A stretch of 41,456 nt of DNA from a candidate division Zixibacteria bacterium CG_4_9_14_3_um_filter_46_8 (GTDB lineage: Bacteria; Zixibacteria; MSB-5A5; UM-FILTER-46-8), in contig PFXJ01000128.1 of the NCBI GenBank assembly GCA_002791595.1, positions 26,365 through 67,820 on the forward strand. Reading direction: 5' to 3'. Positions 13,664 to 40,014 of this stretch are shown here, one piece after another. Every line of letters begins with the position of its first letter. Position 1 is the first letter of the stretch. The notes below the pieces were generated by a model. It saw only the letters and a program-made list of their open reading frames with translations, did not search any database and was not told the DNA's origin. Position numbers and translations under genes: made by a program.

Positions 13664-13675
13664 ATTTAGATATAA

Positions 13676-13691
13676 AGCAAGGGCAATGCCA
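13676..13691 (-). promoter_or_regulatory. Putative sigma54 (-24/-12) promoter of the S8 protease
   Basis: Minus strand reads TGGCATTGCCCTTGCT, which is GG-N10-GC and close to the TGGCAC-N5-TTGCW consensus. Confidence 0.65.
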
Positions 13692-13851
13692 TATCACTCC
13701 GAATAATACTAACCGTATCATATTAATACATCATTAGTTACTGCAACCGGCAATTCCAATTCACCCCGATTTCCGACTATTAGGCAGTCGCTTGCACAAC
13801 TAACTTCTTTCTTTGCATATCAATAGTTATATGTTTGAAATCTATAGTTCC

Positions 13852-14136: not shown

Positions 14137-14141
14137 GATTT

Positions 14142-16415: not shown

Positions 16416-16454
16416 AGTGAACCTCTTTATTATCGTGATAGCTACCAAAGAGCA

Positions 16455-17444: not shown

Positions 17445-17472
17445 TTGACAAAAATATTTTGATGTCTATATT
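17445..17472 (+). promoter_or_regulatory. Putative sigma70 promoter of the porU operon
   Basis: TTGACA(17445-17450)-N16-TATATT(17467-17472), about 180 nt upstream of ATG 17655. Confidence 0.6.
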
Positions 17473-17654: not shown

Positions 17655-20600
17655 ATGGTTAAGAATTTTCGTCTTTATTGCGTGGTGTTATATGTTTTCA
17701 TTGCGGCATTTCAATTCCATCCTGCGTGGGCCTATTCATCCAGAACTCCAGACACTGATGGAGTTACGATTCAAAGCAATGATTCCCGCGGAATAGCATT
17801 TACTTTCCGACCTGGAAAGATGAATTTGGATAGGATTGAAACTGCAAGGGGTGATTTCGATATTATAGGTCTTGAAGATGGTTTTTCGCTGAACAAGCCC
17901 GGTTATCCATCACTACCCGCCCGTAAATTCTATATTGCCTTGCCGCCGGGTTCGTCTCCTCAGACATCGGTCTCGGCGGTCATTGGCACAACGATTTTCG
18001 AATCTCTGAAGCCGGCGCCGTTCGAAGATGGCCAGCCAGTCATCCAGCCGCAGTCAATCTCGAAGGCTCTTTATTCCCAGAATGTGGGGAAGATTCGTGA
18101 TATGGACGTGCTGACGCTGACCGTATTAGCGGCGAACTATAACCCCGCGATTAAAACCGCGGCGGCTTATCGGGCAATAAATATAGATATTCGGTTTAAT
18201 GATAATGATGCCAAGCGGTATGAAACAGTTGGGGAGGATAGATTTGCGCGCAAGATAATGAAGAGTCTCTTGTTGAATTACGAAAACTCCAAAGGATGGC
18301 ATTATCGCTTGGATTCAGCGGCAAGTATGGCTTCAGGCTCCCCATTCGATTCCGCTTTTACCTGGCTCAAATTTAGGACGACCCAAGAAGGGATTCACAA
18401 GATAGATTACTACACTCTCTCCGCATCGGGAGTGCCGCTGGCGGAAATAGATCCCCGAACCATAAGAGTATTCGGGTCGGAGGCCAATGAGTTGCCTCCG
18501 GACAATGATGATCCTTACCCGATGCTCAGAGAATTGCCGATTTATGTTTATGGTTCAGAGGACGGCAGCTTTGACAAGACTGATTATATATTTATGTATG
18601 CGCCGGCAGTAAATAGATTCGAATATGACAGTACTTCCGGGCGCGACTTTTATCATTATAATCACTACACAGCCGAAAATTCCTTTTTCTTTACTTATGG
18701 AACCAGCCAATTTAATGAGCCGCCCCGAAGATGGAGCGAGGTGAATATTGATGTGACGGATTCCCAATTGCCCACGGCCAGCACTTTCTATGATTTTATT
18801 CGTGTCGAGCAGAACAAGATGCTCTGGAGGGATAGCGAGGGAAGCATTCAGGATTTTTACGAGTGGTACTGGGAAAGCGGAACATCATTTGATCGATTCA
18901 CTAACGAACAGCTCTTTGATGTGGTTGCCGGTGACACGGGCTGGGTTTACAGTCAGAGCCGCGCTTCTCAGGCAACCGTCAAGGTCAATGGTCAGCCGGC
19001 GACATTCATCTCTTATTCTTCATCCAGTTGGATTACCACCTCACAGACGTTTAATTTTCAGAATGGGCTGAACGAATTGGAATTCGGCTACTCTGGCAAC
19101 GTAACCTTCAATTATTTCGACTTACAATATAATCGTGGCTTATCGGTGGTCAATGATCATTTGCGCTTCCGGGCGCCCAGACAGGCGGGCACATACATAT
19201 TCAGCCTCAATAATGCCGATCCCCAGTATTTATTGTTAGACATCACCGACCCGCTGTCGCCGAGGAAGCTGGTGGGAGGCAACCTCCAGAGCAACAGTTG
19301 GAGATTTCAGTATGCATCAGAGGGACTAAAATCCAATTTCTTTTATGCGGGGCCTTCCTCCCATAAGACCGTCTCCTCTATGGAATCATATTCTCCTGCG
19401 GGTTTGAGAAGCATCTCCAATTCGGCTGATGGAATCATTATTGTATATGATAGTTTCCGAAAACAAGCGGAGCGGCTGGCATCGCATCGTTCATCATTTA
19501 GCGGATTAAATTATTATATTGCTGACTTATCGGATGTATATAACGAATTCGGATGGGGCCGGTCGGACCCTCTTGCCATCCGTTATTTCTTGAGGTATGC
19601 TTTTGAGAATTGGAACGGCACAAAACCGGTCTCATGCACGCTGATAGGCGATGGTCATTATGATTACCTTGATAACTGCAATTTGAATATCCCCAGTTAT
19701 CTGCCTCCTTTCGAGTATCCCCTGGGTTCACTAAAAGCTTGGGCTTCAGATGACAACTATGTCTTTTTCGGCGCTCACGGGGATTACGATAGCGACAATT
19801 CCGGTTTTCCAGATATGATCATCGGCAGATTGCCGGTGAAATCCGCCGATCAACTCTCGGTGGTCATAGACAAGATTATTGACTACGATGCAGGATCCGA
19901 TCTTGGTGAATGGAAGAATACCATAACGATCGTGGCTGACGACCAGTTTAGCTCTGATAGCGACACCGAATGGTTTCATACTAGTCAGGCAGAAACTCTC
20001 AGTAAATATCATACTCCGCCGTCTTATAAACTCAATAAAATATATGCCATTGATTACCCGATGGAAGAAGGCAGAACTAAACCTTTGGTAAGAAAATCAA
20101 TCATCGATTCATTTAATAATGGGTCTTTGATAATTAATTACATCGGCCATGGTAACAAAAACGTTTGGATGCACGAGCATACATTCAGGAAGACCGAAGA
20201 TCTGCCCCACCTGACCAATCGCAAAAGGCTGCCTTTGGTTTTCGCCGCATCCTGCAGTATTGGCGATTTCGATGATCCCACCGATGAAGGAATGGCTGAG
20301 GATTTGCTCCGGGCCAGCAACGGCGGCGCAATTTCGGTAGCATCGGCAACCAGGGGAGTTTATGCCGGTGAAAATGCAGCCCTTAATAACGCATTCTTCG
20401 ATTATATGCTCAGCCCGGATTCCCTCTCGATTTCAGAGGCCTTCTATGTGGCCAAACTGAGCCGGGGTTCCAAACCCAATGATTGGCGCTATACATTATT
20501 TGGAGATCCTGAACAAACTCTTGGCAAGCCCGATTTTCATGTCGCCATTAATTCAGTGGTCTCCGGAACAACGGCTGATACGCTCAGTGCGTTGGCGCTG

Positions 20601-21578
20601 GTAACCGTGACCGGCCAAGTTCAATATCAAGATGGAACGCCGGCCGGCGATTTCAACGGCGTCGTTTATCTTAATGCCTATGATGCCTTGCGAGTCATTC
20701 CTTATGGCACAGTTTATACTTACAAGCTACCTGGAAATATCTTGTTCCGCGGCCCATCTGATGTCCAGAACAGCATCTTTACTTCAAGATTTCTGATGCC
20801 CAAAGATATCGATTATGGCCAGAGTACGGCCAAAATAATCGCCTATACGATTGACGAGAACCAAAATATTGATGGCGCCGGATATCGGGATTCCTTGTAT
20901 CTGGGCAGAGCGACTGAAGCCTTGAATGATTCATTGGGACCGACTATGACCGCCTACATCGATAACAAAATCGTTAGCGGGAGTTTTATGACTGTTGGGC
21001 CCAGCTTCAACTTTATGGCGGTCCTTACTGATTCCAGCGGGATTAATATGACCGGCCAAGCTGGCCACTATATCTCATTGGTAATCGACCATGGCGAGTC
21101 CTTGAACGCCAATGTAACCGATTATTTCGAATATGATATGAATAATTACCAGACCGGGACGCTGGATTATCGAATTGAGGATTTAGCCACCGGAGATCAT
21201 CATATCGAGCTGAAAGCCTGGGATAATTTTAATAACTCTGCTCTGAAATCCTTCACGATCAATGTTGTTTCTCAAGAGCAGACCGAATTGTTGGATGTGA
21301 TGAATTATCCTAATCCGTTCAAAAACAATACGGTTATTCAATACCGTTTGAATCGCGCCGATATATCCAAAGTCGAAGTAAAAATCTACACGCTTTCTGG
21401 TCTCTGGATCAGAACTCTTAAAAACTGCCCATCAGATAATTCTTATAATTTCGTGGAATGGGATGGACGGGATGCCGACGGTGACGAAATCGCTAATGGA
21501 GTGTACATATATAGTGTCATCGCCGCAGGTCCCGGCGGGAGATCGGAGAACATTCAAAAAGCATTGAAACTTAGATAG
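17655..21578 (+). CDS. porU: Type IX secretion system sortase PorU-like protein (C25 gingipain family)
   Basis: Signal peptide; C25 propeptide; YIFMYA/YNHYT N-terminal motifs; VYNEFGWG..DP.AIR.FL; IGRLPV; catalytic NYIGHG and ASC; LFGDP; KAWDNFNN; CTD NYPNPF...NGVYIY. Confidence 0.88.
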   Translation: MVKNFRLYCVVLYVFIAAFQFHPAWAYSSRTPDTDGVTIQSNDSRGIAFTFRPGKMNLDRIETARGDFDIIGLEDGFSLNKPGYPSLPARKFYIALPPGSSPQTSVSAVIGTTIFESLKPAPFEDGQPVIQPQSISKALYSQNVGKIRDMDVLTLTVLAANYNPAIKTAAAYRAINIDIRFNDNDAKRYETVGEDRFARKIMKSLLLNYENSKGWHYRLDSAASMASGSPFDSAFTWLKFRTTQEGIHKIDYYTLSASGVPLAEIDPRTIRVFGSEANELPPDNDDPYPMLRELPIYVYGSEDGSFDKTDYIFMYAPAVNRFEYDSTSGRDFYHYNHYTAENSFFFTYGTSQFNEPPRRWSEVNIDVTDSQLPTASTFYDFIRVEQNKMLWRDSEGSIQDFYEWYWESGTSFDRFTNEQLFDVVAGDTGWVYSQSRASQATVKVNGQPATFISYSSSSWITTSQTFNFQNGLNELEFGYSGNVTFNYFDLQYNRGLSVVNDHLRFRAPRQAGTYIFSLNNADPQYLLLDITDPLSPRKLVGGNLQSNSWRFQYASEGLKSNFFYAGPSSHKTVSSMESYSPAGLRSISNSADGIIIVYDSFRKQAERLASHRSSFSGLNYYIADLSDVYNEFGWGRSDPLAIRYFLRYAFENWNGTKPVSCTLIGDGHYDYLDNCNLNIPSYLPPFEYPLGSLKAWASDDNYVFFGAHGDYDSDNSGFPDMIIGRLPVKSADQLSVVIDKIIDYDAGSDLGEWKNTITIVADDQFSSDSDTEWFHTSQAETLSKYHTPPSYKLNKIYAIDYPMEEGRTKPLVRKSIIDSFNNGSLIINYIGHGNKNVWMHEHTFRKTEDLPHLTNRKRLPLVFAASCSIGDFDDPTDEGMAEDLLRASNGGAISVASATRGVYAGENAALNNAFFDYMLSPDSLSISEAFYVAKLSRGSKPNDWRYTLFGDPEQTLGKPDFHVAINSVVSGTTADTLSALALVTVTGQVQYQDGTPAGDFNGVVYLNAYDALRVIPYGTVYTYKLPGNILFRGPSDVQNSIFTSRFLMPKDIDYGQSTAKIIAYTIDENQNIDGAGYRDSLYLGRATEALNDSLGPTMTAYIDNKIVSGSFMTVGPSFNFMAVLTDSSGINMTGQAGHYISLVIDHGESLNANVTDYFEYDMNNYQTGTLDYRIEDLATGDHHIELKAWDNFNNSALKSFTINVVSQEQTELLDVMNYPNPFKNNTVIQYRLNRADISKVEVKIYTLSGLWIRTLKNCPSDNSYNFVEWDGRDADGDEIANGVYIYSVIAAGPGGRSENIQKALKLR

Positions 21579-21666
21579 ATATTTATATAATATGAGATTA
21601 TTCGCAAGTCCGGAATTGTCCGATGAGAATTGAAAATAATGCGATGATATTGAGGAGAAAAAAAGA

Positions 21667-24276
21667 ATGAAAACCCTATTGACCGCCATATTGGCGATAT
21701 TATTGATCTGCGGGATAGTGGCCGACGCAAATGCTCAGGTCAGCCGTGCCGGAGTAATCTTTCTGCTCCTTCCCCCAGGAGCACGAGCATCGGGAATGGG
21801 TGACGCTTTTACATCAATCGCCGATGATGCCACCGCAACTTATTGGAATCCTGCCGGGTTAGGGCGGTATCCATTATCTCCTACCTGGTTTGATTTCCCC
21901 AATAATTCCGGACATAAGATCCGCCAGATTGCAGTTCTTAAAAATGGATTGCCCGATAACAATTATCGAAAATATGACACCTGGGCAATTCTCGACAATC
22001 AATTGGCCCGGTTTGATGGCGAAAAATGGATATTCGGAGATAAATATTATCCGGTGGCTGGAGAAAATGCTGATGATATTGCCAGAAGGTTTTCCGGGGT
22101 GGAAAATACCGATAGCCTTGCGGTTCTAAAACAGAAACTGGCTTCAGTAAATAATGTAATAGGCAAAGCCGAGTTGGTGGCCCTGATTAACAAGATTCAG
22201 GAGAATATTCCGGCCGATTATGCATATATCGAAGATGTGAAATATTCATTGGAATCGTTGCTCAATTCTTGGGCGGAACTTACCATCGATAAGGTGAAAT
22301 ATCAGAAGCTACAGACTTTGGTTAACGAATCGTTGCAGGACGGCGCCTTCAGCGCACTGGAATTTGATAAGGTTACCTTCTCAATCAATAATGCGATTGC
22401 GATACGATTACCGGAGGAACTGGATATCCCCTTTAATTTCGTGCTTCCCGATACCCTGACCATACTGGCTTCCGATGGTGAAGAGCTTTGGCTGGGGACG
22501 CCTTATGGCCTGCATAAATACAATGGCAAACGTTGGACCTCATACACAACTGAGGATTCCTTGATTTCCAATGATATTACCGCTATTGCCTTCGGGAAAA
22601 TGCAATCGGTTTGGATAGGGACCGCGGACGGCCTTTCCAGATTCGCGGGCAGAAAGTTGAGCTCTTTTACAGTCGATAATGGACTTCCCGCGAATCGAAT
22701 CGAGCAAATAGCTATAGGCAAAGGAAATGATATCTGGGTCTCGACCGATAAGGGGCTTGCCAAGTTCGATGGCAGCCAATTCAAATCTGCGCAAGACCAT
22801 CCCGTTAATGTCGGTGAAGACCTTACCAGGATTGCCGCCAAATTCGTCCATCTCAGGCCTGGGCCGGCGCTTGATGCTGTTGCGAAGGCAATAAGGGAAT
22901 ACAATGCTTTGGGCGATTCAACGCTTCAAACTGGAACAAGTATCAAACTCCCGTTCTCAGCGGCCATCAAAGGCAATATTAATGCCATCTATACAGATCC
23001 GGAGGGCATTCTGTGGGTTGGAACCACTGAAGGATTGGTTGGTTACGATGGCGATTCCTGGGATTATCAAGGATTCAAGCAATTTACTGGCAAACAGGGT
23101 GATACCGCAGAAAAAATTGCCATGGGCATTTTGGGAGCCAAGGCGGGTGGAGATAATATCTCCCATCTTGCAGGGAGAATTACCCATTTCAACAGTCTTG
23201 ACGAACAGCCGATCGACGCGGGAGATATGATTTATGTCCCATCTGCGCCGGTTGCCTCGGAAATTATTTCTCTGGGCGGTCTGGATGGCGGTGATGTTTT
23301 GGCAGGTACCAAGTATGGGCCCTTCACGAAATCCGGCGATACCTGGAAAAGGTATATGCACGCTGATCTTGACAAGGCGGAAGTGCTTAGCGTTATCCAG
23401 AAAGAAGGCGAAGTCTGGCTGGCCAGCAAGGACAAGTTGGTTATTAATGCCCATTCCAAACGTGAAATGTCATTTATGCACAGCAACTGGCTTCCTTCCT
23501 TAGCAACTGACATATATTTTGAATACCTCTCGTATGTTCAACATTACCAGGGGATAGGCACTTTGGGCGGGGCAATCACCTTCCTCTCTTATGGCGAGCA
23601 ACAGAGAACAGGAGAACAGGGCGAGGACCTGGGCACATTTTTCTCCTATGAGATGGCCTTGGCAGTGAGTTATGGCGCGAAAATCAACGAGAAATTGGCG
23701 TTGGGGTTAAGCGCGAAATATATAAATTCGCATTTATCGGATCTTGGGGCAGGGCAGGAGAAAGGATCCGGAACCGCATCTTCATTCGCAGTTGATGGCG
23801 GCATGCTATGGAGAACGCCTGTCAGAAGGCTGACCATGGGCTTGACCATAACCAATATCGGACCCGATATTTCTTACATAGATGCCGCCCAGGCTGACCC
23901 GTTGCCAAGAAATTTGACTCTTGGTCTGGCTTACGAGCTCTTCAAGAATCCCTATAATAGACTCACCATCGTAGGCGAGGCTTCAAAACAGCTCATCGAT
24001 CTAACTAAGTTCAATCGTGATTCATTCACGGGCAAGATCGGCGAGAAAATGGAGGAAGTCATCGCTCATATCGGAGCGGAATATTGGTATGGAACATTCC
24101 TGGCTCTGCGCAGCGGGTTTGTGAACGATAAAGCCGGACATCAAAGATACTATACGCTTGGAGCGGGTTTGCAATATTCCAATTATCGGTTTGATTTTTC
24201 TTACATACCATCGACCTCAGAGGAATTCAACCGGTTGGGCAATACGATGAGATTTTCAATGACCGCGAGATTCTAA
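21667..24276 (+). CDS. porV: PorV/PorQ-family outer-membrane protein with a large beta-propeller + LysM insertion
   Basis: N-terminal FLLLPPGARASGMGDAFTSIADDATATYWNPAGLG; barrel resumes at aa ~599 (SFMHSNWLP..., NIGP.ISY...DPLP.NL, LALRSG, YYTLGAG); terminal Phe. Confidence 0.85.
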   Translation: MKTLLTAILAILLICGIVADANAQVSRAGVIFLLLPPGARASGMGDAFTSIADDATATYWNPAGLGRYPLSPTWFDFPNNSGHKIRQIAVLKNGLPDNNYRKYDTWAILDNQLARFDGEKWIFGDKYYPVAGENADDIARRFSGVENTDSLAVLKQKLASVNNVIGKAELVALINKIQENIPADYAYIEDVKYSLESLLNSWAELTIDKVKYQKLQTLVNESLQDGAFSALEFDKVTFSINNAIAIRLPEELDIPFNFVLPDTLTILASDGEELWLGTPYGLHKYNGKRWTSYTTEDSLISNDITAIAFGKMQSVWIGTADGLSRFAGRKLSSFTVDNGLPANRIEQIAIGKGNDIWVSTDKGLAKFDGSQFKSAQDHPVNVGEDLTRIAAKFVHLRPGPALDAVAKAIREYNALGDSTLQTGTSIKLPFSAAIKGNINAIYTDPEGILWVGTTEGLVGYDGDSWDYQGFKQFTGKQGDTAEKIAMGILGAKAGGDNISHLAGRITHFNSLDEQPIDAGDMIYVPSAPVASEIISLGGLDGGDVLAGTKYGPFTKSGDTWKRYMHADLDKAEVLSVIQKEGEVWLASKDKLVINAHSKREMSFMHSNWLPSLATDIYFEYLSYVQHYQGIGTLGGAITFLSYGEQQRTGEQGEDLGTFFSYEMALAVSYGAKINEKLALGLSAKYINSHLSDLGAGQEKGSGTASSFAVDGGMLWRTPVRRLTMGLTITNIGPDISYIDAAQADPLPRNLTLGLAYELFKNPYNRLTIVGEASKQLIDLTKFNRDSFTGKIGEKMEEVIAHIGAEYWYGTFLALRSGFVNDKAGHQRYYTLGAGLQYSNYRFDFSYIPSTSEEFNRLGNTMRFSMTARF

Positions 24277-24284
24277 TTTGAGGA

Positions 24285-27200
24285 GTGGGAATTTTGGTTA
24301 GTTGGTTATCTTTTAAGCGATTCATAATCTCCGCCATTATTGCATTATTGACGATGTCTGCTGCTTCGGCATCGAAGGAAATCCTGAATATCGAGAAAAT
24401 CGTGAAGCCGGGCTCCAGCCCATACTCTAAGATTATGCCCGGCAACCGCCCGGAATTTGTTTCGGATGTCTCTCGAAGCAATATCCTAAAGCTTGATCGT
24501 GAGCGTCCCGGAGCTCTTCCTTTTGCTCGAAAAGGTTTGCCGCTTGACGTCTTCCAGGTCGATACCCTCACGGTGCTTGGTTTGCGGGTGCAGTTCAAAG
24601 AAGAAACCCCGAACGATCCGCTGACTACCGGCAATGGGCTGTTTGATATGAGGGACACCCTGCAGTTCAAAGAGGAAGAGGGCCATTACTTCGATACCTC
24701 TCCCCACAATAAAAACTATTTTGCCGCCCATTTGCAGGCGATGTCGCACTATTGGTGGGAGATGTCCGGGCATACTTTGGTCATTCAGTATGAAATCTGG
24801 CCTCCCGGAGTCGATTCCGTTTATCAACTCGATAAGACGAATGGGTATTATCACGAGGAATATGGTGATGACCCGCGCAATGTGCTTGGCGGATATTTCA
24901 AAGATGCCATCGAGTTGGCGGATTCGATTTCGCCGGATTTGGATTTTGCTCAAGCTGATGGCCGTATCAAGCCCATAATAATATTCCACCCCGGATCGGA
25001 TCGACAGAATGATTACAATGGCGACTCACCGCGCGACTTCTACACCGGTTTTCTGTTTCTTTTTGAGCCGGTCGTGGTCGATTCTGGCGCCAATCAGGTT
25101 TCTGAAGGCATTATTATGCCGGAGACCACGACTCAGGATAGGCCCTCGATTGAATGGCCAGTCGGTGTTCTGAACGGAGTGATGGCGCACGAATTTGGCC
25201 ATGTATTGGGGACGCGAGATTTTTATAGTACCTGCAACTTTGGGACCCGCATCGGAGATTTCTCTCTGATGGATAATAACTTCTCCACCACGGGTGCAGA
25301 CTTTGGAGCGAATATCCCTTTCGTCTATGGAGTTCTGCCGGCATCTCTTGATATCTGGACCAAAGCGTATCTCGGTTTTATCAATCCAATCACTGTCACG
25401 GATTCGACCGGAATCGGGATTGTTGCGGCAGGAATGAACAAAGAAGGAACCAAGTGCGTGAAAGTCCCCATCGATAATTATGAATATTTCGTCATCGGGA
25501 ATCATCAGAAGGAGATCGATTATGATGTTTCCAATCCAAACATAGACTATCCTAATGTTATTCTATTGGATAAGGTGACCAGCGTGGTTATGGGGCCGGG
25601 ATATGCTATAACTGATGCGGACACCTTGATCAAAGTAGTGACCGGAGAATACGACCGACTTCTCGATACACCTCCAGAGAATACCAAAGGCGGGATTCTG
25701 GTATTTCATATCGATGAGGTGGTGGCTTATAGCGATTTCTTCGGGGCGGGAATAGGCAACTGGGATCTTAATACTCTACAATGTGATACATCCCGTTGGT
25801 TCATTCGGGTCGTTGAAGCGGATGAGGAAGTTACTTTCGGAAATATCTACCATGCCGGCACCGGCTCCACCGAAGACCTATATCCGTTCGGGAGCAGAAA
25901 TATGCTCAACCCGGACACCAGGCCGTTTTCGTCGGGATCGAATTCCGGAGCCAATACCGGAATTTCCATCAGCAATATTACCGCGCCTGATTCCATTATG
26001 TATATCGATGTGAAGGTGGATAGGCATTTACCCGGATGGCCCAAGAATTCGGTTCCGGGGAATGTAGCCTCACATCCGGTTCCGGTGGATGTCAATGTCG
26101 ATGGCAAAATGGAAATTTTCCAAGCCAATCAATATATACTGACGGGATTCAATTCCGATGGCTCAGGGATTATCAATAATGACTACTCGCTGCAATTATT
26201 AGGATTTGATAATAAGCCGATATCGATTCCGCTCAAGGTTTTCGCCCTTCTGCCAGATTCCATCAGCTATGTCGGAACTCCTTCTGTAGGAGATTTGGAT
26301 GGAGATGGGACCAAAGAGGTGGTTATTGGGGCAAATGATGGCAATCTATATGTGTATAAGGCAAGTGATGGTGATGCCGATGGCTTGGCTGACTTGGCAA
26401 GCGGCTTTCCGGTAGAGCTTGGCGCCGCCGCGGCTGTCACGCCTATTTTGGGCAATTTCGATTCTACCGTTACCCTTGAAATCTGCATGGCCAATATCAA
26501 TGGGAAAGTTACTGTTCACGACCATTCCGGGAATTTGATTTCAGAGGCCGACTCCATTCCCGGCGTACCGAGGGGATTGGCGGTGGGCGGCGACCCAAAT
26601 GCAATTGCTTTCACCTGCAACCCAGCCGATTCGCTCTCCGACAGTTCTTATGTCGGAATGATTCGCCTCGGCGAACATCAGGTCTCCTGGAAGCGGGGAT
26701 ATTTCGATACTTATCTTTATGAACCGGTTATAGGAGATATTGAAGGGGATGAAGTGGAGCAGGTGGTAATAGCTTCCAAGAGCGGCTTAATAGCGGTTTA
26801 CACGGTGCAGGGTGGTGAATTGGCAAATGGCTGGCCTGCGGACGCACAAGATTCGCTTGGCGCCGGCCCGGTCATCGCGGATATCGATAGAAATGGTTTT
26901 GCGGAAATTATTGTGCCAGGTACCAACCAGATTCATTGCTATAGCTTCACCGGCTCGCCGGTGGAGAATTTTCCGGCTGAATTGAATCGGACGCATCCAA
27001 ACGGATTGGTGAATTCACCAGTTATTGTGACCGATGTGGATGCGGATGGATTTCCGGACATACTCGTGGGCGGTCCCCAAAGGGATGTATTCGGATTTAA
27101 TCACAATGGCGGATCACTTGCAATCTTCCCCCTGGCAGTAGGACTGCCGGTTAACTCGTCACCATTCGCCGGAGATATCGACGGCGATGGCGATATCGAT

Positions 27201-27638: not shown

Positions 27639-27690
27639 TCTTTGGAATGAAAAAAATGTCGTTATTTTATACATTGATGAGGAGGTTTCT

Positions 27691-28515
27691 ATGAAAAGCA
27701 TCCCCGCTTTGATTTTAGTGGGAGTTGCCATTATATGGATCGCAGTCTGGCCATCGATAGGCAACGCTTCGGCAGATATGGGTCCAAATGGAATTCATAA
27801 TTATTTCAATGGGCTATCATATTCGTCGGAGGGAATCGCATTCAGCAATGCGGGGGCAAACAGCTATTTTCCTCAAAATGACAAGGGAGAAAGATCAAAA
27901 TCAGGCGATAAAAAATCTCCTGTTAATGCATTTCTTTATTCGCTGGCAATTCCGGGATTGGGGGAACTCTATGCCGGGTCAAGGCATAAGCCATATATTT
28001 TCCTTTACATTGATATGGTCCTCATTACCAGTGAGATGATTTATTTCCAGGAGGGGCTGAATGGTGAAGCTGCTTATCGACGTTATGCCGACCTGCACTG
28101 GTTCCGGGATCCATTTAACATCTGGTGGAATACGCTTGATTCGGCGACACAGGCGGGCTATTCACATCGCTTGCCTCCCACCAATGATTATGAATATTAC
28201 GAAAACATCGGGAAATATGATCAATTTGTATGGGGCTGGGATGACTTCGTCGTGGACGGCCCGGTCTTGACCCCGCACCGGGAACATTACCTCGAATTGC
28301 GCAAGAAAGCGAACGATAAGTTCGACACCGCCCGAACCTTTATGGTGGTGGCGATGGTGAATCATGTGGTATCGGCATTCGATGCGGCATTTACTGCAAA
28401 ATCGTATAACAAGCGGGGCCAGTCCGATTTCTTCGGCAATGTGAAAATAAGGATGTTGCCGGTAATAGCGGATAATCAGGTTTACCCCCAATTAACATTC
28501 ATCAAAGGTTTCTAA
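27691..28515 (+). CDS. Exported protein of unknown function (DUF5683-like), paralog A
   Basis: Signal peptide; SP..AFLYSLAIPGLGELYAG motif; hydrophobic helices; terminal Phe. ATG 27691 follows GGAGG. Confidence 0.7.
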   Translation: MKSIPALILVGVAIIWIAVWPSIGNASADMGPNGIHNYFNGLSYSSEGIAFSNAGANSYFPQNDKGERSKSGDKKSPVNAFLYSLAIPGLGELYAGSRHKPYIFLYIDMVLITSEMIYFQEGLNGEAAYRRYADLHWFRDPFNIWWNTLDSATQAGYSHRLPPTNDYEYYENIGKYDQFVWGWDDFVVDGPVLTPHREHYLELRKKANDKFDTARTFMVVAMVNHVVSAFDAAFTAKSYNKRGQSDFFGNVKIRMLPVIADNQVYPQLTFIKGF

Positions 28516-28516
28516 A

Positions 28517-29284
28517 ATGGCAGGCAAAACAGTTCAGATTCTAATGACCATAATTCTGTTCCTCTCCTTCTCGAAGATTGTTTATGCCGAGCAACCGCCG
28601 AAAGTTCGCCAACTGATGATTTCCGAAATCAGTTCGGGGGAAGCAGATGCAAATGGCGATAAAGATTTAAATTGGACTGAACCTGAGAAACAACACAAAG
28701 GGAAATCCGGATTCAAGGCCGGTTTGTTATCAGTAATGCTTCCAGGGGCCGGTGAGTTCTACCTCGGCAACAAATCTCGAGCGGCAGTATTTGTCGGCAC
28801 CGAGGCCGCCATTTGGGGCGGCTACCTCGCATTTCATACCTGGGGCGATTGGCTCAAGAACGATTACAAAAGCTACGCCGCCGAACATGCCGATGCGAAA
28901 GTCTATGGAAAAGATGATAAATTTTTCGACCGAATGCAATTTTACGATAGCCGGGATTGGTTTAATGAAATCGAGGGAGAGAGATACGGTTACCCTTATC
29001 CATATACCGATTATTATTACTGGCACTGGGACAGCCCGGATTCGCGCAAGGAGTTTCGTAAAATCCGCTATAACTCCAAAGCCGCTTTCAGAAATGCAAC
29101 CTTTATGATTGGGGTGGCAGTGGTCAATAGGTTGGCCAGTGTGGTCGATGCGGTATGGTTATCAAGACAGATCAAGAAGGGCGAGGGTTTGGAATTTTAT
29201 GGTGGATGGAGGTTGGATTACAACGCCAATCCGTTTGCTAATAACCCCGATGCCTCGCTGAAACTGAGCAAATCATTTAATTGA
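28517..29284 (+). CDS. Exported protein of unknown function (DUF5683-like), paralog B
   Basis: Signal peptide; KSGFKAGLLSVMLPGAGEFYLG; YA..HA and NR..S.VDA motifs shared with paralog A. Confidence 0.7.
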   Translation: MAGKTVQILMTIILFLSFSKIVYAEQPPKVRQLMISEISSGEADANGDKDLNWTEPEKQHKGKSGFKAGLLSVMLPGAGEFYLGNKSRAAVFVGTEAAIWGGYLAFHTWGDWLKNDYKSYAAEHADAKVYGKDDKFFDRMQFYDSRDWFNEIEGERYGYPYPYTDYYYWHWDSPDSRKEFRKIRYNSKAAFRNATFMIGVAVVNRLASVVDAVWLSRQIKKGEGLEFYGGWRLDYNANPFANNPDASLKLSKSFN

Positions 29285-30252
29285 GCCTTGATTGTGTGAG
29301 CAGAGGTCCCAAATACTGTCTTATCCTCTTACTTGCATTCAGCCTGCCATATATTTCCTGCAGTGGCGCTGGCAGATATGAACCTGGAGTTATCACCCAA
29401 CAAAATCCCCCCAGGGGTTTCGAATTAGTTAGATATATTGGTCCGACAATCGAAGGCGGCGCTGACCTCTATTCGCCTTGCGATATCGCTTTTGATGTGG
29501 ACGGGCAGATGTTCATCTGCGACAATGGCAATCATCGAATATTGAAACTGGGCCGCCAGCTCGCTTTCATCAAGGAAATCGGAGGTTTCGGAAATGGCAA
29601 TGAACAGCTTGCAAACCCAATAGCGATAGTTTTTGATAATGGGCTGACGCTTATGGTTGCTGACACCCAAAAACGACGTATCTCGCGCTTCGATCGGAAT
29701 TTGAATTTCATCGATTTTTTCCTCGAGTATAAATCGGCGGAAGCCTTCGCCAATATCGGAAAACCCTCCGGAATTCATATTGGCCGCAATGGGGATATTT
29801 ATCTCAGCGACGACGATAACAATAGGGTGTTGGTCTTGGACAGCTTCTATAACCTCCAATCCGAAATCGGGGGATTTGGATATGGAAATGGCGAACTTTC
29901 TTCCCCTGCCGGCTTGGTCACAGATCAATCGGATAACCTCCTGGTTGCTGATTCCCGGAATGGCAGAATTGCCGTTTATAACAGCGTCGGAGGGTATTCT
30001 GGCGATTTTGGAAGAGACCGCCTTCGATACCCAATCGATATTGCCATTGACCCCGCCGGCTACATCTACGTTTCGGATCGCAATCTGAAGTCAGTGCTGG
30101 TATTCTCGCGCTCCGGAAAATATACTATTGAAAGCTCATCTTATGGAAGCTTCCTCGATGAACCAGCCGGAATTCATATTCATTCTGATGGCTACATCTA
30201 TGTTGCAGATCGGGCTTCGAACCGAATTGCGGTATTAAACATTATCAGATAA
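29281..30252 (+). CDS. NHL-repeat six-bladed beta-propeller lipoprotein
   Basis: Six P..I..D..G.IYV.D..N.RI repeats; lipobox-like YISC. Start is TTG 29281 or GTG 29296. Confidence 0.85.
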   Translation: MSLDCVSRGPKYCLILLLAFSLPYISCSGAGRYEPGVITQQNPPRGFELVRYIGPTIEGGADLYSPCDIAFDVDGQMFICDNGNHRILKLGRQLAFIKEIGGFGNGNEQLANPIAIVFDNGLTLMVADTQKRRISRFDRNLNFIDFFLEYKSAEAFANIGKPSGIHIGRNGDIYLSDDDNNRVLVLDSFYNLQSEIGGFGYGNGELSSPAGLVTDQSDNLLVADSRNGRIAVYNSVGGYSGDFGRDRLRYPIDIAIDPAGYIYVSDRNLKSVLVFSRSGKYTIESSSYGSFLDEPAGIHIHSDGYIYVADRASNRIAVLNIIR

Positions 30253-30263
30253 CCGATGGTGGT

Positions 30264-33200
30264 TTGCTGTTGTCGGCCTCGAAAATCCCCGTTTTTCTTT
30301 TCTTACTGACTATTCTCTTAGCAAAATCCTCATCTTCAAACGCCACTCAGAGGACAGAAGTTGCCCTGAATGGAGATAATTCGACCGGGCCTTATCTCAT
30401 CTCCCATGACCCGATTGCCATGGGAAGCGATTCGATATGGGTGGATGAAGTGCTTTTCCAGAAAAGCGAAAATTATAGCATCGATTACGATAGAGGTTTC
30501 ATCATCACTTCACAACCGGTGCCAAGCTCATCGACGATCAGGGCCAGTTATATCGCCATCTATTCGCGTTTGAATAATCCCCATTATTTGTACAAACCGC
30601 TATCGATTGACCTAAAAAGCGCATTTCCACCGGATTCTTCAAGGCCCGCATTGCAATCAGAAAAACCGCCCAGCTTCTACAGTCCAGGTCTTAATATCGG
30701 CGGCAGCAAATCACTTTCAATCGAGTTTGGCAGTAGCTTGAATCCCGATATAAACCAGGCGCTCGATTTATCAATAAGGGGTCCTGTCGTTAGGGGAGTG
30801 AATGCAACCGCTTTTGTTTCCGACCGGGGTATTCCGGTTGCTTCCGGCGGCACCAGCACTATTGAAGAGCTGGACAAATTCTTTATCAATATCACTGCCA
30901 AAAATTTCAGCGCCACCCTGGGCGACTTTTATGTCGATTTCAATAGCCTGGAGTTAGCGCGATACAATAAAAAATTGAAAGGGCTGGCTCTCAATTATGA
31001 TGATCAGATTAATCAGGGTTCTATCTCAGCATCTTCATCTTCTGGGCGTTTCACCGTGAATCGTTTTAATGGCCGTGAGGGCGACCAGGGACCTTATCTT
31101 CTCTTCGATCCATCCGGTTCCCGCAGTTTAACCGTGCTGCCCGGCACCGAGACCGTTTTCATCAATGGTGAAAAATTGACTCGTGGATCCGACAACGATT
31201 ATGTCATCGATTATCAGAACGCTCATATCACCTTTACGCCAAAAAGATTAGTAACTTCCGATTCGCGCATCGAGGTTGAATTTGAATATTCGAATCGAGA
31301 ATTTTCACGAGGATTTTATGCTTCGCGATTTCACCGCAGCAACCGTGAGGGTCGATTCGCATTCGGGGCCACAGTCATTGCCGAAATCGATGATAAAAAT
31401 GGGCCACTGAGCGCGGCCTTATCCGATGAGGATCGCCAAGCTATCAAGGATTCCGGGATCGGAGAATATGCGCTCAAATCGGGTGTGGAGTATAAGGGAC
31501 CTGGCCAGGGAGAGTATAATCAGGCCGTCGATTCGACCGGATATATCTACTATCTCTATGTGGGGCCAGATTCCGGGGAGTATCATATCCAATTCTCCAA
31601 TCTTGGTTATGGCAAAGGCGATTATACATATATTGGCCGAGGCATCTATTCATTTGTCGGAGTATTGAAGGGCGATTATGCTCCAGTTGTTAAACTTCCA
31701 GTCCCCAGATCGCAATATCTTTATGGATTCGATGGTTCATTCAATCCAAATGATAATGTCAACTTTCAAATCGAAAGCGCTTATACGCGCAACAATAGAA
31801 ATCTTTTTCTGGGAGATAATGGCGTTATTGATGATCCTGCCTTAATACTGCGAGGAAAGGCCGTCACAAAACCTTCATCTTCCTTATTGCCCGATGAAGT
31901 TGTTTTGTCGGGCAACTATCGCCATACCGCCCGGAATTTTGCCCCTTTTGCGGAATTCCGCGCGGCAGATTATTATAACAAATGGAATCTTCTTCCCAAT
32001 TACAGTTCCGTTACCGAAGATGCGGGCGAGGGTGCCTTATCTACGTCATACGGCAGCCGATGCAGCTTTGACTTCGAGGGCGGGCGGTTGTCGAGGGCAT
32101 CGGAAGGTTACTCTGACCGTTGGTCGGCTGGCGCCGCAGTTGAACTTCCGCTTCAGTCTAAGCTACACGGCAATTTCCGTCAATCGGATCATCGGTCCAA
32201 GGCGGACTCTTTATCCAGCTATTTCAATTTAAAGGGAACGCTTCAGGAATTCGATTCACAGTATGAGTTCCGTCAATGGCTATTCAAACCTTCATTGGGT
32301 TATAAATTCCGCAATAATGAGAATTATGAAAACGAGATTCTTCGCGATGGCGTCAGATATAACATCTATGAAACGGGATTAGCGTTCTATGCGCACAAGA
32401 GGATCACCAATACCGTCACCTACTCCCTGCAAAGAGATGATGAATATGCTGGAAAGTGGTTAAGAAAAGATGAAGCAATTACTCTAACTGAGCAAATCGC
32501 GCTGGCGGATATCCCCGCCGGGCTTACCCTGAATTACGAATACACTTTTCGTAACAAAAGATTCAAGGAAATTGCCGGAACCAACAGTCGCCAGAACCTG
32601 TCCTACTTGACCAGCGGTTTTAATTCCGGGCCATTCTCAATCGAATATAATCATAAATATAATCGGATGCGCGCCGCCTTGAAAATACGTCGCTATATAT
32701 TGGTGGACGAAGGCACAGGCGATTATAGCTACGAAAACGGCGAATATGTGCTTGACCCGTTCGGAAATTACATCTCGGTGTTGGAGGAAGCCGGCGATTT
32801 CCGCCCGATATCGGAAGTGGAGAATGCATTTTTCTTCAAATTTGACGGCAGAAGAGCCAAAGATGATTCGTCATATCTCCGGCAATTCAAATCGGAAACC
32901 TCGTTGGATTTCAATCAGAGGTCGGAAGAGACCGGCATCAAGTTCGTCGATATGATTAATCCGTGGCGCAATATGAACCCTGCGCTTCTTGTCAGCGAGC
33001 AACTACGCTTTATCCAGGACGTTTACCTGCTCCCCGTGAACACAAAGATCAAAAGAGAGATTCGTCTAAGGTATGCTCAAACGCTCATTGTCGCCTCTGG
33101 AGGCAGTTTCGAAAGCGACTTTGACGACAAGCGGTCGGCGGCGGCCAGGCTCCGCCAATCGCTTGGGAAAGGATTTTCTCTGGAAGCCGAATATACTCGC

Positions 33201-33629
33201 GAACATCGGCTGGTGGCGGGCATTGCCGAACTACGGATGGATTCGGATCTGTTGGTGCCGGATATCACTTTCACACCAAATGCCGGCCTTGAAATAGGGA
33301 GCGGCCTCAAGTACCGTAGAGATCGCGAAGTCATCGATGAATTTACGGTCATCCTGTACTCATTGCTTCCCCACATCAGATGGAATTTTTCTCAAAAAGG
33401 CCGTTTTGATTTTAATGCTGAAATTATCAGGGTGCTATCGCCGGATGCACAATTCTTCAACTATCGAATCGCGGAAGGCAATCGGGCTGGCGAAAATTTT
33501 AGATTGACGGTCCGCGGCCTCCTGCGCTTGGGGGAAAATAGCGTGGGAGAGCTAACGTACAATTTTCGAAAACGACCCGATGAAAAGGCGATGCATCTGG
33601 CGAGAGTCGAAGTAAAATATAACTTCTGA
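30264..33629 (+). CDS. Large predicted outer-membrane beta-barrel protein of unknown function
   Basis: Signal peptide; many amphipathic beta-strands; C-terminal VEVKYNF; two copies of a GPY.L...GS/TE.V...DY.IDY..G/A.I module. Confidence 0.75.
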   Translation: MLLSASKIPVFLFLLTILLAKSSSSNATQRTEVALNGDNSTGPYLISHDPIAMGSDSIWVDEVLFQKSENYSIDYDRGFIITSQPVPSSSTIRASYIAIYSRLNNPHYLYKPLSIDLKSAFPPDSSRPALQSEKPPSFYSPGLNIGGSKSLSIEFGSSLNPDINQALDLSIRGPVVRGVNATAFVSDRGIPVASGGTSTIEELDKFFINITAKNFSATLGDFYVDFNSLELARYNKKLKGLALNYDDQINQGSISASSSSGRFTVNRFNGREGDQGPYLLFDPSGSRSLTVLPGTETVFINGEKLTRGSDNDYVIDYQNAHITFTPKRLVTSDSRIEVEFEYSNREFSRGFYASRFHRSNREGRFAFGATVIAEIDDKNGPLSAALSDEDRQAIKDSGIGEYALKSGVEYKGPGQGEYNQAVDSTGYIYYLYVGPDSGEYHIQFSNLGYGKGDYTYIGRGIYSFVGVLKGDYAPVVKLPVPRSQYLYGFDGSFNPNDNVNFQIESAYTRNNRNLFLGDNGVIDDPALILRGKAVTKPSSSLLPDEVVLSGNYRHTARNFAPFAEFRAADYYNKWNLLPNYSSVTEDAGEGALSTSYGSRCSFDFEGGRLSRASEGYSDRWSAGAAVELPLQSKLHGNFRQSDHRSKADSLSSYFNLKGTLQEFDSQYEFRQWLFKPSLGYKFRNNENYENEILRDGVRYNIYETGLAFYAHKRITNTVTYSLQRDDEYAGKWLRKDEAITLTEQIALADIPAGLTLNYEYTFRNKRFKEIAGTNSRQNLSYLTSGFNSGPFSIEYNHKYNRMRAALKIRRYILVDEGTGDYSYENGEYVLDPFGNYISVLEEAGDFRPISEVENAFFFKFDGRRAKDDSSYLRQFKSETSLDFNQRSEETGIKFVDMINPWRNMNPALLVSEQLRFIQDVYLLPVNTKIKREIRLRYAQTLIVASGGSFESDFDDKRSAAARLRQSLGKGFSLEAEYTREHRLVAGIAELRMDSDLLVPDITFTPNAGLEIGSGLKYRRDREVIDEFTVILYSLLPHIRWNFSQKGRFDFNAEIIRVLSPDAQFFNYRIAEGNRAGENFRLTVRGLLRLGENSVGELTYNFRKRPDEKAMHLARVEVKYNF

Positions 33630-35368
33630 TGATAAAATCAATTTTTAGAATAAGCTTCTCATTGCTTATAGTATTAGTATCGACAGTTGCTTTTGGCCAC
33701 GCCGGAACTGGTGAAATAATATTCGCAGGCAACAAGGCCATTTCATCATCAGAATTAAGGCAGTCTCTAAAGCTGGATGACAGCCTCGATTCGTTATCAA
33801 TAATAACTAACTTATCAAGCGAAATTGCGGGAGTCTATCAGTCCCTCGGTTATTGGAATTGCTTATCCAAAATAAAGTTATCGACCGATAGCATTGGGGA
33901 GCGGGTAATCTCAATTGCCATCAGAGAGGGCGAGACTTTTACATATAATAAGATCAAATTCGATGGTTTGCGATATGTCCCGGCCGCACTTTTGTTTTCG
34001 CAGACCGGCAGCATTGACGGGAGAACCGCATCCCTGATAACATTAAACAGCTATATCGACAATCTATTGGAATTCTTTGCCGAATATGGTTACCCCTTTG
34101 CCACCATAACTGCCCGTGAGTTCAATATCGATTCCGAGAATCAGGAAGTAGCGCTTACCTTATTTGTGAATGAAGGACCAATAGTTGAAATTGATACGGT
34201 AATTGTATTGGGCAATCGAGTGACATCGGATAATGTCATCCGAAGGGAAATCCAACTGCCCCCCGGCTCCACTTTCAAACAGCATCGCTTGAATTCTTCG
34301 GTAGCGCGCATAAATCGGCTTGGATATATTACCGTTAGTGACCCTCCCCAGCTTTACTTCCGAGGCGAACCTCGCCAAGGAGTTCTGGTTTTTCAGATTG
34401 CAGAAAATAAGACGTCCCATATTGATGGAATTCTTGGCTATGTTCCTTCAACGGGATCGGGCAAAGAATATCTTACGGGTATGATGGAAATTGTTCTTGA
34501 TAATATAATGGGCACTGGGCGAAAAGCACAGATTTACTATGAGTCCACAAACCCAAAATCCAAGGAATTAAAATTCGCTTATACCGAACCTTATCTTCTA
34601 GGAACGCCGCTTGACTGGACCCTGCGATTCGATCAGGTCGATCGGGACAGCACCTTTATCAGGGTTTCCGCGCAAATGGATTTTCGCTATCGCCTGGGAC
34701 CGGGAACCGACTTAAATCTCTCGCTGATTGCCGAGAGAATTACTCCAGGTCAGTCTGGTTTTGCGCCCGAAGAACGTTACACTGGGTACTCCACTTCTGT
34801 TGGCGTGGTCGGAGAGTATTTCGATTACCCGGATAATCCGCGAAAAGGCTATGCTTTCGATGTCTCTGCCAGGTATATCAAGAGAATTTATCCAACGACC
34901 TTTAATTACGTTCCCCTCGATCCGGAAATTAACCGGACCGCCGGGGAAGTAAGAAGCTTCATTGCGCTTGGCCTTTCTCGAAATTCCATCCTATTTTTCC
35001 TGGGAGGAGTTGCTGGCATCACCGGCGGGAATCAATATCTGCCGGTCTCGGAAAGATACAATATTGGAGGCCGAAGGAGTGTCAGAGGATACCTTGAAGG
35101 TCGCCATTATGGTGCCATAGTCAGTTTCATCCGTAGCGAATACCGGATTCTGTCAGGACGTGATGGACGGATTTTCTTGTTTTCAGATAATGGTTACTAT
35201 TATTTTAGGGATCGGGATGGGCGCCAGGCAGATGACGTTCTCTCTGGCTTCGGATTTGGCGCCGCATCCAAGACACGATTAGGCATTGTTTCGGCTGAAT
35301 TCGCCTGGGGCCGCGGCGATTCCTTTGGAGAAGGTAAGTTCCATTTCGGGATTGAAAATAGATTTTGA
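33629..35368 (+). CDS. Omp85 (BamA/TamA) family protein with POTRA domains
   Basis: POTRA motifs (F.GN..IS..EL, GYPFA, GN..T...VIRRE); NIMGTG; YTEPY; IGG..SVRGY; terminal RF. TGATG overlap with the upstream gene. Confidence 0.9.
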   Translation: MIKSIFRISFSLLIVLVSTVAFGHAGTGEIIFAGNKAISSSELRQSLKLDDSLDSLSIITNLSSEIAGVYQSLGYWNCLSKIKLSTDSIGERVISIAIREGETFTYNKIKFDGLRYVPAALLFSQTGSIDGRTASLITLNSYIDNLLEFFAEYGYPFATITAREFNIDSENQEVALTLFVNEGPIVEIDTVIVLGNRVTSDNVIRREIQLPPGSTFKQHRLNSSVARINRLGYITVSDPPQLYFRGEPRQGVLVFQIAENKTSHIDGILGYVPSTGSGKEYLTGMMEIVLDNIMGTGRKAQIYYESTNPKSKELKFAYTEPYLLGTPLDWTLRFDQVDRDSTFIRVSAQMDFRYRLGPGTDLNLSLIAERITPGQSGFAPEERYTGYSTSVGVVGEYFDYPDNPRKGYAFDVSARYIKRIYPTTFNYVPLDPEINRTAGEVRSFIALGLSRNSILFFLGGVAGITGGNQYLPVSERYNIGGRRSVRGYLEGRHYGAIVSFIRSEYRILSGRDGRIFLFSDNGYYYFRDRDGRQADDVLSGFGFGAASKTRLGIVSAEFAWGRGDSFGEGKFHFGIENRF

Positions 35369-36198
35369 ACCTTACGGGAGTAATTAGGATAGTTCGCCCT
35401 CTCAATGGGCTGATTTCATCTTCGACCGTATGGATTTCATTCTTAATTGCCGGCGGCGATTACAGGAGTGGTGACGGAATTTTGGCGGCAATCGCCGCTT
35501 TCCTATTCACCGGTTTTGCCAATACTGTCAATGATATTGCCGATATAAAGATCGATAAGATAAATCGACCCTCAAGACCTTTACCCTCCAATTCAATTTC
35601 AATCGGGGCGGCTTATTATGAATCTTTCTTTCTGGGTATGATGGCCATAATGATAAGCGCTTTGCTTAGCCCTATGAACTTCTTGATTGGCGCTGTCGCT
35701 TTGGCATTTATGTTAATCTATAGCCTACGTTTGAAGCTTACGACGCTTTGGGGCAATCTAACGGTAAGCATAATTGCCGCATCAGCTTTCCTTTATGGGG
35801 GAGCTGCTCAGGACAGCCTTAACCCCACTCTTCTACCGGCTTTAATGGCGTTTTTGCTCCACCTTGGACGAGAGATAACTAAAGATATCGAGGATAAAAG
35901 AGGTGATCAGGAGCTTGGAGCGCGAACACTGCCGATCAGATGCGGCGACAGGTTTTCAAGATTGTTAACTGCATTTATCCTTTCCATATTTATCATCGCC
36001 ACTATATTCCCCTATATTCTGGGATATTATCATTTTGGTTATCTTGCCTTAGTTCTGATTGTTGACTTGATTTCATTCTATATCATAATCAAGTTGCTTT
36101 TCGCAGAGACCTTGGATGCAAGATTGCTGTCCCAACTACTGAAGATTTCTATGCCGATAGGAATTGGATCCGTATATCTGGGATCCCTGGGAATTTGA
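35365..36198 (+). CDS. UbiA-superfamily prenyltransferase, DGGGP synthase-like
   Basis: RP.N, NDIADIKIDKINRPSRPLPS, YS.RLK...WGN, GREITKDIEDKRGD...GARTLP; multiple TM helices. TTG start overlaps the Omp85 stop. Confidence 0.85.
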   Translation: MNLTGVIRIVRPLNGLISSSTVWISFLIAGGDYRSGDGILAAIAAFLFTGFANTVNDIADIKIDKINRPSRPLPSNSISIGAAYYESFFLGMMAIMISALLSPMNFLIGAVALAFMLIYSLRLKLTTLWGNLTVSIIAASAFLYGGAAQDSLNPTLLPALMAFLLHLGREITKDIEDKRGDQELGARTLPIRCGDRFSRLLTAFILSIFIIATIFPYILGYYHFGYLALVLIVDLISFYIIIKLLFAETLDARLLSQLLKISMPIGIGSVYLGSLGI

Positions 36199-40013: not shown

Positions 40014-40014
40014 C

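Follow-up and report, generated by a model that had tools for sequence, protein, structure and literature searches.

A conserved type IX secretion gene cluster encoding an unnamed giant outer-membrane beta-barrel in a candidate division Zixibacteria genome

We analyzed a window of 41,456 nucleotides from a metagenome-assembled genome (MAG) of the candidate division Zixibacteria bacterium CG_4_9_14_3_um_filter_46_8 (GenBank GCA_002791595.1; contig PFXJ01000128.1, here C84:26365-67820). The MAG comprises 2.73 Mb in 133 contigs and is 94% complete, and the nearest homologs of the window genes are found in candidate division Zixibacteria. Between positions 17655 and 36198, the window carries nine genes (g1 to g9) that begin with components of a type IX secretion system (T9SS). 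We read this locus as a cluster conserved across the class, in which a T9SS attachment module (g1-g5) is joined to an outer-membrane module (g6-g8) and to a final gene, g9. The giant barrel encoded by g7 would be an accessory T9SS component, in a lineage where no T9SS motor is detectable. We give this reading as a whole a probability of about 0.6. Genome counts below refer to the source MAG and 30 relatives (31 genomes), and locus counts to 25 relatives in which the 20 kb downstream of PorU were scored, 23 of these loci being untruncated.

Gene content of the cluster

All nine open reading frames (ORFs) lie on the plus strand, and the intergenic distances given in an earlier note made from the window sequence alone were reproduced (88, 8, 52, 1, -4, 11, -1 and -4 nt, the third measured from the ATG of g4). 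The gene annotations in that note also proved correct when the nine ORFs were scanned with family profiles. The first gene, g1 (17655..21578, +), encodes the T9SS sortase PorU, a C25 peptidase with a C-terminal domain (CTD)-like C-terminus, which matches the PorU model NF033707 at 720.6 bits against a cutoff of 420, and PF01364 at 279 bits. PorU is above the cutoff in 28 of the 31 genomes, the remaining three being represented by fragments.

The second gene, g2 (21667..24276, +), encodes a long form of PorV that exceeds the cutoff of the PorV/PorQ subfamily model NF033709 (255.5 bits vs 90) and stays below that of the PorV equivalog NF033710 (192.1 vs 250). Its barrel is made up of residues 1-70 and approximately 595-869 (the last ~275 residues). 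About 520 amino acids are inserted between these two parts, after the first strand, and form a propeller of the Reg_prop type with helical and LysM-like segments. The predicted model (mean predicted local distance difference test score, pLDDT, 82.3) retrieves the Flavobacterium johnsoniae PorV chain 8gl6_F as its top Foldseek match (E 3.4e-19, TM-score 0.62 on the target, 28% identity). Next come the BT4673 and BT4663 sensor propellers, which are ectodomains of Bacteroides hybrid sensors, and PorZ (5m11) is found at rank 21. Because the insert follows the first barrel strand, the model suggests that it would sit in the first extracellular loop, on the cell surface. A long PorV is encoded in all 25 relatives' loci, with lengths of 857-1052 aa that indicate a variable insert size. 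We considered whether the insert could stand in for PorZ and rejected this, since its likeness to the propellers of hybrid two-component sensors is at least equal to that to PorZ, and PorZ-like matches occur in 30 of the 31 genomes, many of them as separate genes.

The third gene, g3 (24285..27638, +), encodes an M6-like metalloprotease that has FG-GAP repeats and carries a type-A CTD, the mark of T9SS cargo (TIGR04183, 29.1 bits vs cutoff 23). Its match to the M6 model PF05547 is borderline (22.1 bits vs cutoff 22) and that to TIGR03296 is below the cutoff (72 vs 111); the HExxH motif is kept intact as HEFGH, and we place the protein in the M6 family. NCBIfam also holds models for PorU2 (NF052324), PorV2 (NF052325) and M6i (NF052323), which we know by their names only ('putative type IX sorting system' and 'T9SS-dependent M6-like inactivated metalloprotease'). 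These models share the theme of a PorU-like, PorV-like and M6-like trio, whereas g1, g2 and g3 fall far below their cutoffs (156 vs 450, 42 vs 325 and 283.9 vs 600, respectively). On these profile scores g1 is a genuine PorU rather than a PorU2, and g3, which keeps its HExxH, is therefore not the inactivated M6i form.

Genes g4 (27691..28515, +; open frame from a TTG at 27628, ATG at 27691) and g5 (28517..29284, +) encode paralogous DUF5683-like membrane proteins with 21% identity to one another (E 1e-7). The match of g4 to PF18935 (DUF5683) is weak (E 0.0097, 16.4 bits vs cutoff 26.7) and g5 has no match to this model; across the family that they form, 36 of 44 members match PF18935 at E<=0.01, the best at 1.3e-8. 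Besides a hydrophobic segment at the N-terminus, both proteins show an invariant S-x3-P-G-x-G motif and another one or two hydrophobic stretches. A proton relay through a conserved acidic residue of this motif was ruled out, since 25 of the 44 members have E at the position, 15 have Q and four have H. Profile searches of the PDB with this family returned only three chance matches to antibody chains (E 0.38 or worse). The g4 gene is present in all 23 untruncated loci.

The sixth gene, g6 (29281..30252, +), encodes an NHL-repeat beta-propeller (PF01436, 99.4 bits) that is probably a lipoprotein, with a lipobox-like sequence ending in ISC at its N-terminus. It is followed by g7 (30264..33629, +), which encodes a giant outer-membrane beta-barrel of 1121 aa from a family without a name, and by g8 (33629..35368, +), which encodes a short Omp85 protein with POTRA domains (PF01103 and PF07244), a signal peptide and a C-terminal F. 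Although g8 is a paralog of BamA, it was rejected as the housekeeping BamA: it reaches 146.4 bits against a TIGR03303 cutoff of 297, over profile positions 154-628 only, and the genuine BamA of this genome is on contig C126 (513 bits). It is an additional, TamA-sized Omp85 that is encoded together with g7 in most lineages other than Ignavibacteria. Similarly, in most loci that are not from Ignavibacteria-type genomes, g6 is the gene immediately upstream of g7. The arrangement recalls the beta-barrel assembly machinery (BAM) and the translocation and assembly module (TAM), in which an Omp85 protein with POTRA domains, of about TamA length in the case of g8, is accompanied by a propeller lipoprotein (compare BamB) and by a very large partner protein. 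It differs from them in that the NHL propeller of g6 is not of the BamB type, g7 is itself a barrel, and g8 is not BamA. Prediction of a complex between g8 and g6 gave a score of 0.00 in both runs, which is uninformative on binding.

The last gene, g9 (35365..36198, +), encodes a prenyltransferase of the UbiA family (PF01040, 136 bits vs cutoff 34.2). Its best NCBIfam matches are to archaeal-type geranylgeranylglyceryl phosphate (GGGP) and digeranylgeranylglyceryl phosphate (DGGGP) transferase models, both below the cutoff (NF009523, 197.7 vs 269; NF009521, 189.7 vs 296), and no NCBIfam equivalog cutoff was reached. Genes of the GGGP/DGGGP type have been reported from bacteria in the superphylum Fibrobacteres-Chlorobi-Bacteroidetes (FCB) in a passage of PMC7852524.

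The earlier note had placed the operon downstream of one sigma-70-like promoter, TTGACA-N16-TATATT. This site is present upstream of g1 (17445..17472, +; 11/12 matches), and the part of the claim that did not stand is its uniqueness, as an equally good site (TTGAAA-N16-TATAAT; 21564..21591, +; 11/12 matches) is found at the gap between porU and porV. Promoter-like sites are not clearly enriched in the window (43, vs 35.0 +/- 5.8 in shuffled sequences), and no convincing internal terminator was found within the cluster. The nine genes probably constitute one or two transcription units.

Conservation and modularity of the cluster

The order g1 to g9 recurs in 18 of the 25 relatives' loci (18/23 untruncated), an arrangement far beyond chance, and conservation of the downstream genes, which the earlier note had proposed to examine, thus extends across the class Zixibacteria. 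Two further loci contain g1-g5 with g7 and g8, another two run from g1-g5 directly into g9, one has g1-g5 only, and in the last two a contig end cuts the cluster after g3. The attachment module is the constant part, with g1-g5 kept in 23/23 untruncated loci. The two genomes in which g9 directly follows g5 have no g7 anywhere. Past g9, synteny is confined to relatives of the same family (d1, seen in three of the 25 loci). In the 18 complete loci g9 follows g8, and as it keeps to the porU cluster also in the two loci that lack g6-g8, this distribution hints at a link between g9 and the attachment module, perhaps through synthesis of an anchor lipid, rather than with the barrel.

Outside the class, we tallied 80 loci out of at least 594 loci of the g7 family in named genomes. 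The full, Zixibacteria-like cluster was found in four of them. The trio g6-g7-g8 was present in order without PorU/PorV in 25 loci (KSB1, Calditrichota, LCP-89 and others), seven loci had g6-g7 only and five had g7-g8 only, while g7 stood alone in 39 loci, mostly of the Ignavibacteria type and many on short contigs. In two loci, one in a Calditrichaeota MAG (5416-15218) and one in a complete chromosome (6195-15960), the NHL-barrel-Omp85 trio directly follows rpsB-tsf-pyrH-frr, which is the classic neighbourhood of bamA. The occurrence of the trio without porUV in other phyla, together with the g1-g5-g9 loci that have no g6-g8, means that the cluster is a composite of two separable modules. The idea of one dedicated, simplified machine was consequently not borne out, as g6-g8 are both separable and dispensable.

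The beginning of the cluster can be compared with the PorU-PorV-PorZ-PorQ complex of Porphyromonas gingivalis and F. johnsoniae, model organisms in which porU and porV are adjacent. The two are alike in having a PorU above the cutoff, a PorV whose barrel matches the solved structure, type-A CTD cargo (g3 and 127 others), a PorZ-like protein, and PorV/PorQ paralogs elsewhere in the genome. They differ in the insert of approximately 520 aa that PorV carries here and in all 25 relatives' loci, and in the continuation of the operon into DUF5683, NHL lipoprotein, giant barrel, Omp85 and UbiA genes.

SprA and cargo elsewhere in the genome

In agreement with the earlier note, the window contains neither PorK/L/M/N genes nor a full-size SprA, and the only signal of the SprA model in it is a motif in g7. 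The further idea that the system lacks SprA and that the cluster is self-contained did not survive a search of the whole genome. A full-size SprA is encoded in the source MAG, split by an assembly break: the N-terminal 1361 aa run off the start of contig C60, and the C-terminal 571 aa come in from the end of contig C4. The summed score against TIGR04189 is 614.8 bits on C60, to which the C-terminal piece on C4 is added, and the two pieces together match the SprA of ~1980-1990 aa found in relatives of the same family. SprA is above the cutoff in 31/31 genomes. Its presence here and universality in the class mean that this T9SS does not lack a translocon and that g7 is no replacement for SprA. 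A MurB gene and two SurA-like peptidyl-prolyl isomerase (PPIase) genes lie immediately upstream of SprA (C60:4147-8648, -); a PPIase belongs to the solved F. johnsoniae translocon complex, according to the title of PDB 8GL8.

We found 128 matches to the type-A CTD in this genome of 2.7 Mb, g3 included. Three more CTD proteins flank the cluster, at 4730-6592 (+), 11885-13663 (-) and 14142-16448 (-), comprising an SBBP-type propeller, a subtilisin-like protease and one protein of no assigned kind; porUV thus lies in a cargo-rich neighbourhood. The PorZ-like matches (E<=1e-5), none of which exceeds the cutoff of 260 bits, are in many cases separate genes of ~730-770 aa, and in the source genome the PorZ-like CTD protein is encoded on contig C126. 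Many PorV/PorQ-family paralogs are also found elsewhere in the genome, including some of 300-400 aa.

Motor and ring genes

Compared with the canonical T9SS of Bacteroidia, SprA, PorU, PorV and CTD cargo are present here, whereas PorK, PorL/PorM and PorN (GldK, GldL/GldM and GldN) were not detected. In the source genome, the best matches to the GldK model TIGR03525 (cutoff 350 bits) reach 76.4 and 63 bits and belong to two generic genes of the formylglycine-generating enzyme (FGE)-sulfatase type on contigs C97 and C17. Both were rejected as PorK, with no gldLMN beside either. The N-terminus encoded by the C97 gene is CsgG/LpoB-like, and DUF559, DinB and CTD cargo genes are its neighbours; on C17, a cysteine-synthase-like ORF comes after the candidate gene. 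The models TIGR03513, TIGR03517 and PF12081 found no GldL or GldM in the source genome, and TIGR03523 and PF19841 found no GldN. Across the 31 genomes, GldK is over the cutoff in none, with 24 having no match at all at E<=1e-15, and GldM is found in none. Searches of five genomes, one of them in a single contig and another in two, with GldL_N (PF22827) and GldM_3rd (PF21602) gave noise only (E>=0.15).

The models performed as expected in controls. Pfam models, PF19841 included, recognise all four gld genes in order in two control operons, and in a sample of 41 Bacteroidota genomes, of which 34 are SprA-positive and seven SprA-negative, the GldM and GldL_N models pick out an identical set of 10. 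The earlier expectation that motor and ring genes are missing is thus upheld, at the level of the genome and of the class, as a non-detection with working controls. No ring or motor of the PorK/L/M/N type is detectable in the lineage, which may reflect true absence.

The same pattern reaches beyond this lineage and is therefore broader than the present operon. GldM is likewise undetected in a Melioribacter roseus MAG and in four further genomes of the FCB superphylum, and none of five genomes that are positive for SprA and negative for GldLM has a GldK match over the cutoff. Either SprA without PorKLMN is the norm outside the classical Bacteroidia, or the profiles fail to reach the motors of those organisms. 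The literature searches that we made found no paper dealing with the T9SS machinery of Zixibacteria, with a T9SS lacking a motor in organisms other than Bacteroidia, or with a family of short SprA-like proteins.

The giant barrel family

No Pfam model matches g7, TamB included, and NCBIfam has no model for the family. An AlphaFold model built from an alignment of 88 sequences is a large beta-barrel (pLDDT 87.6, predicted template modelling score 0.77), in which a small N-terminal beta module is followed by ~38-40 long strands that run to the C-terminus, as counted from the DSSP list. Like SprA/Sov, a 36-strand barrel of ~2000-2500 aa (PDB 6H3I, 8GL6), g7 is a very large single-chain barrel; it differs in being half as long and in coexisting with SprA. 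Small modules of the SprA type are found at residues 34-111 and ~289-342. Against TIGR04189, g7 scores about 20-21 bits (cutoff 200), corresponding to a motif only. Profile-profile alignment of the family with Zixibacteria SprA (hhalign) identified one shared module of ~78 residues at 95.4% probability (78 of 1137 columns) and no sequence homology across the barrel, so that g7 does not fall within the SprA family. This shared module explains why nearly every member of the g7 family gives a weak match to the SprA model. In Foldseek searches, SprA chains rank top with the longest alignment (706-711 residues), and the likeness of the fold to SprA is not distinct from that to generic barrels. A PDB profile search with the family gave no match, and searches of the ESM Atlas returned only unnamed clusters at 0.99, with SprA_N and Porin_4 at 0.87-0.88 as leads only.

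The family is single-copy in the source genome and large elsewhere, with 2958 clusters (50% identity) at E<=1e-30 and uniform lengths of about 1120-1190 aa. Among the matches listed, its members are labelled 'hypothetical', 'uncharacterized' or with generic names, and the latter (outer membrane beta-barrel, TonB-dependent receptor and, once, DUF2460) are probably mistaken. A homolog of 1143 aa is encoded by F. johnsoniae (28% identity over 531 residues, E 3e-49). In the sample of 41 Bacteroidota genomes, g7 occurs in 32 of the 34 SprA-positive and in none of the seven SprA-negative genomes (Fisher p = 1.6e-6, with the caveat that related genomes are not independent). The family accompanies SprA throughout the FCB superphylum.

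Three other identities for g7 were considered. It was ruled out as an alternative to the motor, since eight of the 10 GldM-positive genomes of the sample, one of them a Flavobacterium, also carry it. It is unlikely to be LptD, which ranks low in the Foldseek results, and g7 is missing from all seven SprA-less genomes. A passage of PMC5445135 describes PorF/PG0534 as a TonB-receptor-like protein of 92.3 kDa; g7, at ~128 kDa, is unlikely to be this protein by its size.

Interpretation

On our reading of the locus, type-A CTD cargo would use Sec to cross the inner membrane and would pass the outer membrane by way of the full-size SprA, which is encoded elsewhere. The cargo would then be collected by PorV, and PorU would remove the CTD and attach the cargo to an anchor at the surface. 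In this scheme, the g7 barrel would be an accessory outer-membrane component that works with the T9SS and not a replacement translocon; g8 would help to assemble it or act as its partner, and g6 would be a lipoprotein that partners it.

Several observations weigh against this reading. The second promoter-like site falls between porU and porV. The neighbours of g7 are uninformative in Flavobacterium and other Bacteroidia, and the housekeeping neighbourhood of the trio in Calditrichota fits a general envelope role equally well. Two SprA-positive genomes of the Bacteroidota sample and at least two near-complete Zixibacteria have no g7, so g7 is not essential to a T9SS. Finally, neither GldL_N nor GldM was found in 24 of the sample's 34 SprA-positive genomes, including two with very Bacteroidia-like SprA scores (>2600 bits), and the models or the first-pass filter could miss divergent motors.

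The earlier note had suggested a simplified or ancestral system for CTD-dependent secretion and anchoring. In its full form, this rival is a self-contained system in which g7 would be the translocon in place of SprA and the uncharacterised genes would replace the missing core. It could draw on the lack of GldKLMN matches in the genome and its relatives, on a giant barrel for which SprA gives the best structural coverage, and on the conservation of the cluster. The full-size SprA in this and every other genome of the set largely refutes it, and we consider it very improbable: two near-complete relatives keep SprA, PorU and PorV without g7, g7 occurs alongside a complete GldLM-bearing T9SS in Flavobacterium, and g6-g8 exist without porUV in other phyla. 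This last observation bears equally on a different view, in which the two modules are unrelated neighbours and g6-g8, perhaps with g9, form a general unit for outer-membrane biogenesis or transport, made up of a TAM/BAM-like Omp85, its client barrel and a propeller lipoprotein. The 25 of 80 loci that have the trio without porUV speak for such a unit, as do the two loci in which it follows rpsB-tsf-pyrH-frr, the three of 23 untruncated relatives' loci in which the trio has been lost or moved out of the cluster, and the uninformative context of g7 in Bacteroidia. Against it, g7 is missing from all seven SprA-less genomes, which would be surprising for a general envelope factor, and neither the tight coupling of these genes (gaps of -4 to 11 nt) in the same order over at least 10 Zixibacteria families nor the sequence module common to g7 and SprA is what unrelated neighbours would lead one to expect. 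We regard this view as doubtful.

A further alternative concerns the motor alone. PorK/L/M/N might be present and have been missed, because they are too divergent, were lost in the first-pass filter or, in this MAG, lie in the unassembled 6%. The incompleteness of a 94% assembly in 133 contigs leaves room for this, as do the 24 of 34 SprA-positive Bacteroidota genomes that are negative as well, some with SprA above 2600 bits. On the other side, there are zero matches in 31 genomes, of which several are 99-100% complete and one is a single contig; 24 of the 31 have no FGE-sulfatase-type match at E<=1e-15, although the PorK fold is normally easy to detect; and from two control operons the same models recover the full set of four genes in order. 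We consider it less likely than not that motor genes were missed.

The PorLM motor and the PorKN ring are regarded as core parts of the T9SS that supply its energy. In F. johnsoniae, disruption of the motor traps substrate inside the translocon, as described in a passage of PMC10994853. A class with SprA, PorU, PorV, approximately 128 CTD matches per 2.7 Mb and no detectable motor or ring would imply either a very divergent energising module or SprA-dependent export without one. The g7 family, new to both Pfam and NCBIfam, tracks SprA and is operon-linked to porUV in Zixibacteria, and since one member occurs in the genetically tractable F. johnsoniae, its role is open to a direct knockout test. 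A bolder generalisation is that Zixibacteria, and apparently most FCB lineages outside Bacteroidia, run a high-traffic T9SS (SprA, PorU, PorV, PorZ-like and more than 100 CTD cargos) without PorLM/PorKN, in which g6-g8 and the DUF5683 pair would be undescribed T9SS components, g7 extending as far as F. johnsoniae. As a whole, we consider this generalisation rather unlikely.

Other genes in the window

A gene at 178-1359 (-) encodes a serine palmitoyltransferase-like protein (NF047600, 568.9 bits vs cutoff 640) and is adjoined by genes for a short-chain dehydrogenase/reductase or epimerase and for KdsB (1487-2509 and 3656-4441). These neighbouring genes suggest that sphingolipid and lipopolysaccharide-core synthesis are possible in this Zixibacterium. 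At 6824-8215, a beta-CASP/metallo-beta-lactamase nuclease matches the type VII CRISPR Cas14 model at 395 bits (cutoff 800) and aCPSF1 at 296 bits. Downstream of TsaC-like and low-molecular-weight phosphatase-like genes, the gene at 39985-40956 encodes a GSU2086-family protein that scores above the cutoff (360.7 bits vs 250) and is unrelated to the cluster.

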